DNA of 1,443 nt from Escherichia coli. GTDB lineage: Bacteria; Pseudomonadota; Gammaproteobacteria; Enterobacterales; Enterobacteriaceae. Within the stretch, counting starts at the first letter, position 1, and every line of letters begins with the position of its first letter. The notes beneath the pieces were generated by a model that saw only the letters and a list, made by a program, of their open reading frames with translations, was not told where the DNA came from and ran no database searches. Made by a program: the position numbers and the translations under genes. The stretch is from NCBI RefSeq assembly GCF_003334355.1, contig NZ_QOWP01000087.1; one strand, given 5' to 3'. Of this stretch, positions 1 to 1,443 are shown in pieces.

Positions 1-31
1 TGTACTGACCCCAAAAAGTTGGACAGTTAAA
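1..31. repeat. Terminal inverted repeat at the orfB-proximal end (IRR in the element's own orientation)
   Basis: TGTACTGACCCCAAAAAGTTGGACAGTTAAA; shares the terminal TGTACTG and internal GTTGGAC blocks with the opposite end. The inner boundary is approximate. Confidence 0.8.
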
Positions 32-878
32 CACGAGGCATATAGGTCTGATTCCGATATTCAATTGGAGTCAGACCTTTTAATTTCAGGCTAATTCTTC
101 TGCTGTTGTAGTATTCAATATATTCCGTAACAGCATCCTTCAGTTCGCTTATATTACTGAACTCATCAAGATAAAAACACTCCGACTTTAAGGTTCCAAA
201 GAAACACTCCACCACAGCATTATCCAGACAATTGCCTTTTCTGGACATGCTTTGTTTAATACCATGTTCTTTAAGGATATTTTGATATCTTCTCATACGA
301 TACTGCCATCCCTGGTCAGAGTGCAGAACAGGATGCTCGTGAGGATTAAGCTTTTTGAATGCCTGATCGAGCATATTCTCAACCATGTTCATCACTGGTC
401 TTTCCGAAAGGCTGTAAGAAATAACTTCGTTGTTGAAGAGATCTATTACTGGAGACAAATACAGCTTGCGCCCATTGACTGCAAATTCAGTAACATCGGT
501 AACCCACTTCTCGTTTGGCCGCGTAGCCTTGAAATCTCTTTGGAGAACATTAGGGGCGGTTTGCCCTACCTCTCCTCTGTAAGAGCGGTATCGCTTGACC
601 TTAATCGCTGCTTTAAGTGAGAGGGTTCCCATCAGGCGCTGAACAGCTTTATGGTTAATCTGTTTCCCTTCTCGATGAAGAGACAGCGTTACCCTACGGT
701 ATCCGTATCGGCCTCTATTCTCGTGATAAATCTCACTAATACGCTTTTTAACGTCCGCATACTTGTCAGGCTTGCTGAGAGCCTTTAGATGATAATAAAA
801 CGTACTGCGCGGTATCTCCGCAGCCCTGAGAAGCTCATCAAGAGGATAAAACTGCCTTAGCTCGTTGAGTACTTTCAC
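27..878 (-). CDS. insK: IS3-family transposase OrfB (InsK-like): DDE/RNase H-fold integrase catalytic domain, 283 aa if initiated independently at GTG
   Basis: ORF track 27..878 (-). The first codon is GTG (878..876), overlapping the orfA TGA stop as GTGA. DDE triad located by hand: D128 (GAT, 497..495, motif WVTDVTEF), D188 (GAC, 317..315, motif HSDQGWQY), E224 (GAG, 209..207, motif [17 protein letters not shown]); D-to-E spacing 35 residues. The stop lies 26 nt from the window's left end. Confidence 0.93.
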
Positions 879-1396
879 TTTTTCGTGGGATGAGCTAAGG
901 CTTTCAGCTTTTTTAGATACATAAGCCGCGTTTCAAGAAATCGAACTTGCCTTTCAAGATCCTCAATGCGTCGGTCTTTTGACAGCTCCAATGCTGATGC
1001 CGCTTTTTCTGGATCAACTGATATTGCAATGTTTCTTTTGGTGCCAATCTTGAGCGCGCGTAAACCAGCTTCTCCGCGCTCTTCATAGACCTTCAGCCAC
1101 CTGGCTACAGAACCACTACCAGCAAGCATAAAGTGAGCAGCAGCCTGATTAAGGGACATGTGCTGCTCGATCACAGCTTTCACGACCTTAATACGCAACT
1201 CTGGATCAGCACTAACGCCTTTAGGTTTGGGAATTAAACCTTTTTCTCCATGTTTTTCATAGAGGGCAACCCATGTCCTGACCTGGGTTCGGGGGACACC
1301 AAAACGTGCCGAGATGATCCTGTAACCATCATCAGTTGTGAAGTAGTGATTCACGACTTCAAGGCGCTTTTCAAAAGGGTATTTTGGCTTTGACAT
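27..1396 (-). CDS. insJK: Predicted InsJK (OrfAB) transframe fusion transposase, made by programmed -1 ribosomal frameshifting at 914..908; roughly 455 aa
   Basis: OrfA zero-frame codons CTA AAA AAG place the heptamer A AAA AAG at 914..908. After a -1 slip the reading continues GCT GAA AGC CTT AGC TCA TCC CAC GAA AAA GTG AAA GTA..., with no stop, straight into the orfB frame (checked by hand). The length is an estimate from coordinates, not a verified translation. Confidence 0.8.
854..901 (-). promoter_or_regulatory. Frameshift-stimulating mRNA stem-loop: perfect 10-bp stem, 28-nt loop holding the orfA stop and orfB GTG start
   Basis: Plus 854..863 GCCTTAGCTC is the exact reverse complement of plus 892..901 GAGCTAAGGC. 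On the mRNA the 5' arm begins 6 nt (CTGAAA) after the heptamer, a typical spacer for -1 frameshift stimulators. The loop (891..864) contains the GTGA overlap at 878..875. Confidence 0.8.
875..1396 (-). CDS. insJ: IS3-family transposase OrfA (InsJ-like): DNA-binding HTH protein with C-terminal leucine zipper, 173 aa
   Basis: ORF track 875..1396 (-); ATG at 1396..1394, TGA at 877..875. HTH-like segment [24 protein letters not shown] (aa 25-48, about nt 1324..1253). Leucine heptad L147/L154/L161 (about nt 967..896). Begins 47 nt inside the element's right end in window coordinates, as expected for IS3-family orfA. Confidence 0.93.
   Translation of the reverse strand: MSKPKYPFEKRLEVVNHYFTTDDGYRIISARFGVPRTQVRTWVALYEKHGEKGLIPKPKGVSADPELRIKVVKAVIEQHMSLNQAAAHFMLAGSGSVARWLKVYEERGEAGLRALKIGTKRNIAISVDPEKAASALELSKDRRIEDLERQVRFLETRLMYLKKLKALAHPTKK
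908..914 (-). promoter_or_regulatory. Slippery heptamer A AAA AAG (X XXY YYZ) for programmed -1 frameshifting
   Basis: Plus strand 908..914 = CTTTTTT, so the minus strand reads A AAA AAG in the orfA zero frame (L161-K162-K163). Lies 31 nt upstream of the orfA stop. Confidence 0.85.
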
Positions 1397-1425
1397 ATTA
1401 GGGGCTATTCCATTTCATCGTCCAA
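1397..1425 (-). promoter_or_regulatory. Candidate orfA promoter inside IRL: -35-like TTGGAC (1425..1420); no convincing -10 or Shine-Dalgarno found
   Basis: Minus-strand sequence upstream of the orfA ATG: ...GTTGGACGATGAAATGGAATAGCCCCTAAT-ATG. TTGGAC matches the sigma70 -35 consensus at 5/6. The only hexamer at 17-bp spacing (CCTAAT) abuts the ATG, and the best purine run (GGAAT) is a weak SD. This is inference; IS3-family promoters are typically weak and partly within IRL. Confidence 0.3.
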
Positions 1426-1443
1426 CAAAATGGGTGCAGTACA
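1413..1443. repeat. Terminal inverted repeat at the orfA-proximal end (IRL in the element's own orientation)
   Basis: Reverse complement of the 3' end reads TGTACTGCACCCATTTTGTTGGACGATGAAA. Against window 1..31 (TGTACTGACCCCAAAAAGTTGGACAGTTAAA) it matches 18/24 over the first 24 nt and 22/31 over 31 nt. Conserved blocks are TGTACTG (terminal) and GTTGGAC (18-24 from the tip). The inner boundary is approximate. Confidence 0.8.

Follow-up and report, generated by a model that had tools for sequence, protein, structure and literature searches.

The GTGA stop/start overlap at the orfA/orfB junction of IS150 is true but incidental. The functional unit is the slippery heptamer together with its spacer and hairpin, and orfA terminates in the hairpin loop as it does throughout the IS150 subgroup. 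Our comparison of related junctions indicates that the hairpin is strongly conserved in the subgroup and that the overlap is not. The overlap does not appear to go beyond chance, and seems mostly to be a by-product of the position at which the orfA frame ends. We lean towards the reading, which draws partly on published reports, that independent initiation at GTG 878 is not significant and that the free OrfB protein (InsB) depends mainly on frameshifting.

Identity and anatomy of the element

The window, i.e. the whole 1443-bp stretch of DNA that was analysed, is one entire IS150 element lying in reverse orientation, with a 100% match along all 1443 bp. The records that it matches are annotated as 'IS3-like element IS150 family transposase', and RefSeq carries the joined 456-aa coding sequence under the label 'programmed frameshift'. 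IS150 is a well-studied insertion sequence of the IS3 family, found in 2865 of the complete E. coli genomes (5426 in all); K-12 has a single copy. Both IS150 and its frameshift cassette were characterised decades ago, and the GTGA finding adds no new entity to them. We detected no difference from the reference IS150: the ORFs, the heptamer, the hairpin and the inverted repeats are all the same.

Membership of the IS3 family and its IS150 subgroup is borne out by whole-element identity, the terminal inverted repeats, two ORFs in phases 0 and -1, an in-register A(n)G motif, and the DDE and HTH domains. OrfB scores 350 bits against NCBIfam NF033516 (IS3 family transposase; cut-off 160). The Pfam domains PF00665, PF13276, PF13333 and PF13683 are recorded on database proteins identical to OrfB (283-aa products), and HTH_28 is recorded on the orfA products of close relatives or homologues. 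The edges of the window coincide with the inverted repeats, and the window holds no flanking DNA. The features are collected in Table 1.

Table 1. Features of the IS150 copy, in coordinates of the 1443-bp window
Feature	Position	Strand	Evidence
Left terminal inverted repeat (orfA side), starts TGTACTG	1413..1443	-	inverted-repeat search; arms 1-31 / 1413-1443, 31 nt, 71% complementary
orfA (insA/insJ), 173 aa, ATG start, TGA stop 877..875	875..1396	-	ORF list; calculated mass 19.7 kDa
TGA opening the orfB frame	933..935	-	frame scan; frame open from 932
orfA-frame ATG (ATG TAT CTA AAA AAG), two codons ahead of the slippery codons; candidate internal start	920..922	-	sequence, frame scan
Slippery heptamer A_AAA_AAG of the -1 programmed frameshift, zero-frame codons CTA AAA AAG (916..908)	908..914	-	sequence and frame
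Hairpin 5' arm GCCUUAGCUC, 6 nt past the heptamer	892..901	-	inverted-repeat search and folding
28-nt hairpin loop with the end of orfA and GTGA	864..891	-	inverted-repeat search and folding
GTGA, orfB-frame GTG (878..876) on orfA TGA (877..875)	875..878	-	sequence, ORF list
Hairpin 3' arm GAGCUAAGGC, also coding for invariant OrfB E6-L7-R8	854..863	-	inverted-repeat search and folding
orfB-frame ORF (insB/insK), 283 aa from GTG, DDE (rve) catalytic domain	27..878	-	ORF list, NF033516
Right terminal inverted repeat, ends CAGTACA	1..31	-	inverted-repeat search

orfA and orfB overlap by 58 nt, from just past the TGA at 935..933 to position 875. On the minus strand the orfA frame ends with ...CCC ACG AAA AAG TGA, and its TGA has TG 877..876 in common with the orfB GTG, giving GTGA at 878..875. 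The frame scan found this GTG to be the earliest ATG/GTG/TTG of the orfB frame after the upstream stop, and the sole start codon of that frame from the heptamer to 15 codons into OrfB. The original prediction had placed the overlap inside the frameshift loop. Both its coordinates and its location were confirmed on the minus strand: the arms at 901..892 and 863..854 are 100% complementary with 28 nt between them, and GTGA occupies nucleotides 14-17 of the loop.

Another inverted repeat of 15 nt (44-58 / 64-78, 87% complementary, arms 5 nt apart) sits in the 3' end of orfB, immediately upstream of the right inverted repeat. It could form a hairpin affecting the transposase mRNA or read-through out of the element.

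Stability and conservation of the frameshift hairpin

The hairpin has a perfect 10-bp stem, which begins after a 6-nt spacer and closes the 28-nt loop. Folded alone it reaches -18.5 kcal/mol (z = -5.07), and none of 200 shuffled sequences was as stable. The 106-nt junction region as a whole did not fold significantly better than its shuffles (z = -1.11). An Rfam scan of the window at a permissive threshold returned no curated family over the frameshift element. A match to mir-15 was rejected as due to chance, with 20.5 bits against a gathering score of 57.3.

The sample began with 80 loci that encode relatives of OrfB at 54-63% identity, taken from genomes of three phyla (Pseudomonadota, Bacillota and Bacteroidota). 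Assemblies supplied nine closer relatives, and a further six came from plasmids, ISKpn8 among them. Dereplication, selection for an in-register A6N heptamer and the discarding of truncated or decayed copies left 78 distinct junctions. The loci L083, L087, L089 and L096 were excluded from the counts as truncated copies or for a decayed heptamer. The slippery site has decayed to CAAAAG in L087 and L089, and in L096 to A5G, which an additional A further along compensates; judging from these sequences, the three are probably inactive copies.

The hairpin is found almost throughout this sample. In 77 of 79 junctions a perfect stem starts 4-8 nt past the heptamer; it has 7 bp or more, and usually 10. 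Among the 77 relatives with a detected hairpin, the spacer of 6 nt is the commonest value (47 relatives); 67 have the orfA stop within the loop, 10 have it within the 3' arm, and none has it downstream of the hairpin.

The two arms also covary. We tested 76 distinct relatives with the 5' arm set from the heptamer and the 3' arm set from the OrfB protein alignment, neither arm being picked by its pairing. The arms pair in 95.4% of the cells. Sliding the partner by 1-3 nt lowers this to 19-53%, and none of 500 column shuffles reaches it, their maximum being 93.2%. The compensatory exchanges in the stem are GC/AU, UA/CG and CG/UA. A downstream structure 5-8 nt past the heptamer that is conserved with covariation characterises a -1 frameshift cassette, and the IS150 junction has it.

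The residues E6-L7-R8 of OrfB are invariant and are coded within the 3' arm. The AGG of this arm, which is the Arg8 codon in IS150 and pairs with the CCU of the 5' arm, has its A in 75, its first G in 73 and its second G in 75 of the 76 junctions, covering three phyla. The near-fixed AGG points to selection at the RNA level, with the codon choice apparently fixed by RNA structure.

The cassette thus has three parts, the heptamer A_AAA_AAG (914..908), the 6-nt spacer and the 10-bp hairpin with its 28-nt loop. Ribosomes that do not slip terminate at TGA 877..875 within the loop and release OrfA, and those that slip read the GTG as an internal valine and produce the OrfAB transposase (456 aa). 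This layout resembles the dnaX-type signal, in which a simple stem-loop likewise follows the same heptamer at a distance of 6 nt. In dnaX, however, the -1 frame ends almost at once and yields a truncated protein, whereas the IS150 shift adds 283 residues and it is the zero frame that terminates, within the hairpin loop.

In many distant elements of the IS150 subgroup a GGAG stands 11 nt ahead of the heptamer; IS150 itself is without it. The spacing of this GGAG resembles that of the SD-like sequences that stimulate frameshifting from upstream in dnaX and IS911.

Conservation of the stop/start overlap

The overlap is found in a minority of the related junctions. A start codon overlaps the orfA stop in only 20 of the 78, as GTGA (12), ATGA (1), TTGA (1), TAATG (3) or TAGTG (3). 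No ATG, GTG or TTG of the orfB frame is present from the heptamer to 15 codons into OrfB in 29 of the 78. The codon aligned to the IS150 GTG codes for Ala or Thr (GCG/GCA/GCC/GCT/ACG) in 56 of the 75 tabulated junctions. Several Bacillota elements have GTA with a TAA stop at the position of the IS150 GTG, a single G-to-A difference that leaves both proteins unchanged.

A TGA stop by itself goes a long way towards creating such an overlap. The chance of a nominal start, given a TGA stop, is about 75%, because any preceding base but C yields ATG, GTG or TTG. The base before the stop is other than C in 14 of the 16 relatives whose orfA stop is TGA, which does not differ significantly from the 75% expected (binomial p = 0.20). 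The overlap of a start with the upstream stop, as termination-reinitiation requires, is present in IS150 as GTGA 878..875, but among the relatives we did not find it conserved above chance.

The same position varies within E. coli. A G-to-A change to GTAA retains the orfA stop and the OrfAB valine and loses the GTG, and GTGA/GTAA is in this sense a natural silent toggle. Among E. coli records, 153 contain the IS150 70-mer exactly in its GTAA form, versus 3170 for the wild-type. We considered whether GTAA proves the GTG dispensable in an active element and rejected this, as the three GTAA copies inspected all represent one vertically inherited insertion between glyS and hokA. Judging from these copies, GTAA is a lineage marker of a resident copy. 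Unrelated isolates (the E. coli chromosomes L001, L097, L098 and L099) have this IS150 insertion between glyS and hokA in common, and it carries SNPs specific to lineages, one of them the GTAA change that abolishes the orfB GTG.

Start-site quality and routes to free OrfB

Little de novo initiation is to be expected at GTG 878, given its near-zero anti-SD complementarity and the enclosing hairpin of -18.5 kcal/mol. We scored each start by the best duplex of the 22 nt upstream with the 3' end of the 16S rRNA. The duplex at GTG 878 is only -0.3 kcal/mol, a value equalled or bettered at 99.6% of the window positions, compared with -1.8 kcal/mol at ATG 922 and -3.3 kcal/mol at the orfA ATG. The scan of these 22 nt gave no SD for canonical initiation at the GTG, in agreement with the original prediction that no obvious SD is there. 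In the minimum-energy fold the GUG is paired with a CAC inside the loop, and we infer that a 30S subunit would be unable to thread the 28-nt loop without melting the stem.

The prediction that independent OrfB initiation is inefficient stands as far as a de novo start is concerned, given the GTG codon, the missing SD and the stable stem. It overlooked two other routes, re-initiation at the overlap and a start at ATG 922. A stop/start overlap is the classic geometry of termination-reinitiation, a route that needs no SD, and a ribosome terminating at the orfA TGA has already opened the hairpin.

The products of IS150 were reportedly described by Vögele et al. in 1991, with InsA, InsB and InsAB all seen, proteins of 19, 31 and 49 kD, and a shift by about one third of the ribosomes. 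The same study is said to state that 'expression of ins150B also involves frameshifting'. If so, the experiment proposed with the original prediction to detect InsB was largely done there. The full-text literature searched gave only passing citations, and none of these names the start site of InsB.

GTG 878 is the nominal first start of the orfB ORF and, in our preferred reading, not a significant site of SD-led initiation. In this reading free InsB does exist and would come from the same frameshift, as reportedly found in 1991, most simply by a start at AUG 922..920 followed by the slip on the heptamer. A small share from re-initiation at the GUGA is possible. Translation that starts at ATG 922 and slips on the heptamer would give a protein of 298 aa and 35.2 kDa, i.e. 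OrfB plus 15 residues, and the calculated mass of InsB started at the GTG is 33.5 kDa. The ratio of the gel size reportedly found to the calculated mass is 0.92 for InsAB, and the 31 kD of InsB corresponds to 0.93 of the GTG product versus 0.88 of the AUG-922 product; the GTG start is therefore slightly favoured by this comparison.

ATG 922, the candidate InsB start, is peculiar to IS150, which alone among the 78 related junctions has ATG at this position. Against a start there speak its weak SD (-1.8 kcal/mol) and its lack of conservation even in ISKpn8 (L091; 94.7% OrfB identity), which has ACG in its place. In ISKpn8 and the elements L082, L084 and L085 this position is ACN, and an orfA-frame ATG stands six codons ahead of the slip site. 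The sequence is gaaACGcggcttATGtat in IS150, gaaATGcggcttACNtat in L082, L084 and L091, and gaaATGcagcttACCtat in L085; among these close relatives the one orfA-frame ATG by the slip site has traded places with a Thr codon.

An orfA-frame ATG within 10 codons of the heptamer is found in 34 of the 78 junctions. It is at the -6 codon position in 33 of the 75 tabulated junctions and is common there in distant relatives. Such distant elements (L010, L011, L020, L029, L043, L054, L066 and others) read cgt ATG GAG AAT GCC TAT TTA AAA AAG. We considered this conserved ATG as a start for OrfB and rejected it: its conservation is uninformative, nearly all cases being the Met of an R-M-E-N-A-Y-L-K-K motif in which Met alternates with Ala.

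Alternative explanations

Termination-reinitiation is the alternative that survives best, and we regard it as possible though rather unlikely as the main source of InsB. Ribosomes ending OrfA at UGA 877..875, with the hairpin melted, would restart on the GUG at 878..876 without an SD and make the 283-aa InsB in a fixed ratio to OrfA. The geometry is exactly that of a 4-nt stop/start overlap, the GTG has no competitor in its frame near the junction, and the 31 kD reportedly found is slightly nearer to the GTG product. These points have to be weighed against the 20 of 78 subgroup junctions with an overlap, the 29 without a nearby start, and the ease with which a TGA stop creates a nominal start by chance. 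The 1991 study also reportedly has InsB expression involving frameshifting, which coupling would not.

The enterobacterial relatives give re-initiation its best case. In the clade with at least 63% OrfB identity, 7 of 10 junctions have an NTGA overlap (GTGA or ATGA), which is suggestive only, and it occurs at four positions, offset from the GTG codon of IS150 by -12, 0, +3 and +6 nt. As far as these sequences go, selection could lie behind an overlap placed at four codon positions. It is conceivable, although we think it doubtful, that NTGA is selected in this clade and has been re-created at the four positions. Re-initiation in the opened loop would then provide the 283-aa OrfB from a second, frameshift-independent source beside the frameshift-dependent product of 1991. 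TGA and TAA, however, alternate at one site within one clade, as GGTGAG (L086, L089), GGTAAG (L092, L093) and GATAAG (L094). The TAA stop is found in three Klebsiella plasmid elements that have an intact heptamer and no nearby orfB-frame start, whereas their close relatives L086 and L089 have GTGA there.

Two related elements offer precedents for an OrfB made in other ways. IS3 reportedly (1994) makes its OrfB by translational coupling at an ATGA overlap. Both IS3 and IS150 have a 4-nt stop/start overlap of orfA and orfB shortly downstream of a -1 frameshift site. IS150 differs in having GTG instead of ATG, in the position of its overlap in the loop of a simple hairpin, and in an InsB that is reported to need frameshifting. 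In IS911, OrfB was said in 1991 to be initiated at an AUU next to the A6G. The likeness to IS150 lies in a third, OrfB-only product whose start is non-AUG or otherwise unusual and lies near the slippery site. In IS911 this start precedes the heptamer, in the orfB frame, and its SD doubles as a stimulator of frameshifting, whereas IS150 has no SD-like sequence upstream of its heptamer.

Native IS150 might also make no functionally relevant free OrfB, in which case the '31 kD' species would stem from breakdown of OrfAB or be an artefact of overexpression, and GTGA would have no role. The 29 of 78 relatives without a possible orfB-frame start by the junction are in its favour, and the subgroup as a whole therefore needs no independently initiated OrfB. 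We nevertheless think it quite improbable, because OrfB bands have been reported for two elements of the subgroup. A paper that cites Vögele 1991 has IS150 making three proteins through programmed frameshifting, an OrfB band included. For ISSau2, also of the IS150 subgroup, three bands of similar concentration were described. ISSau2 OrfB supplied separately lowered transposition, an effect cited there for IS3 and IS629 as well.

These bands bear on a further claim of the original prediction, that free OrfB is kept low relative to OrfAB. The claim finds no support: the ISSau2 bands are of similar concentration, and the InsB of IS150 was reportedly visible. That initiation at the GTG is inefficient probably holds, though the low level of free OrfB that was derived from it is unsupported.

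The weakest reading is that GTG 878 is an ordinary independent start, with free 30S subunits on an exposed loop making InsB regardless of orfA translation; although the GTG is in the loop and not the stem, and gene callers and older annotations begin insB/insK there (283-aa products), we find it very hard to credit for a weak start codon that has almost no anti-SD pairing, is not conserved, and is paired with a CAC in a 28-nt loop shut by the 10-bp stem.

Implications for IS150 and its subgroup

For the GTGA overlap the outcome is a clean negative: unlike the hairpin, it does not belong to the conserved design of the IS150 subgroup. If NTGA re-initiation in the enterobacterial clade is true, it would be an extra source of the OrfB inhibitor that is independent of frameshifting. 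OrfB-only proteins can damp transposition, and the amount of IS150 OrfB and the route by which it is made therefore bear on how active IS150 is, an element behind many mutations in laboratory evolution of E. coli.
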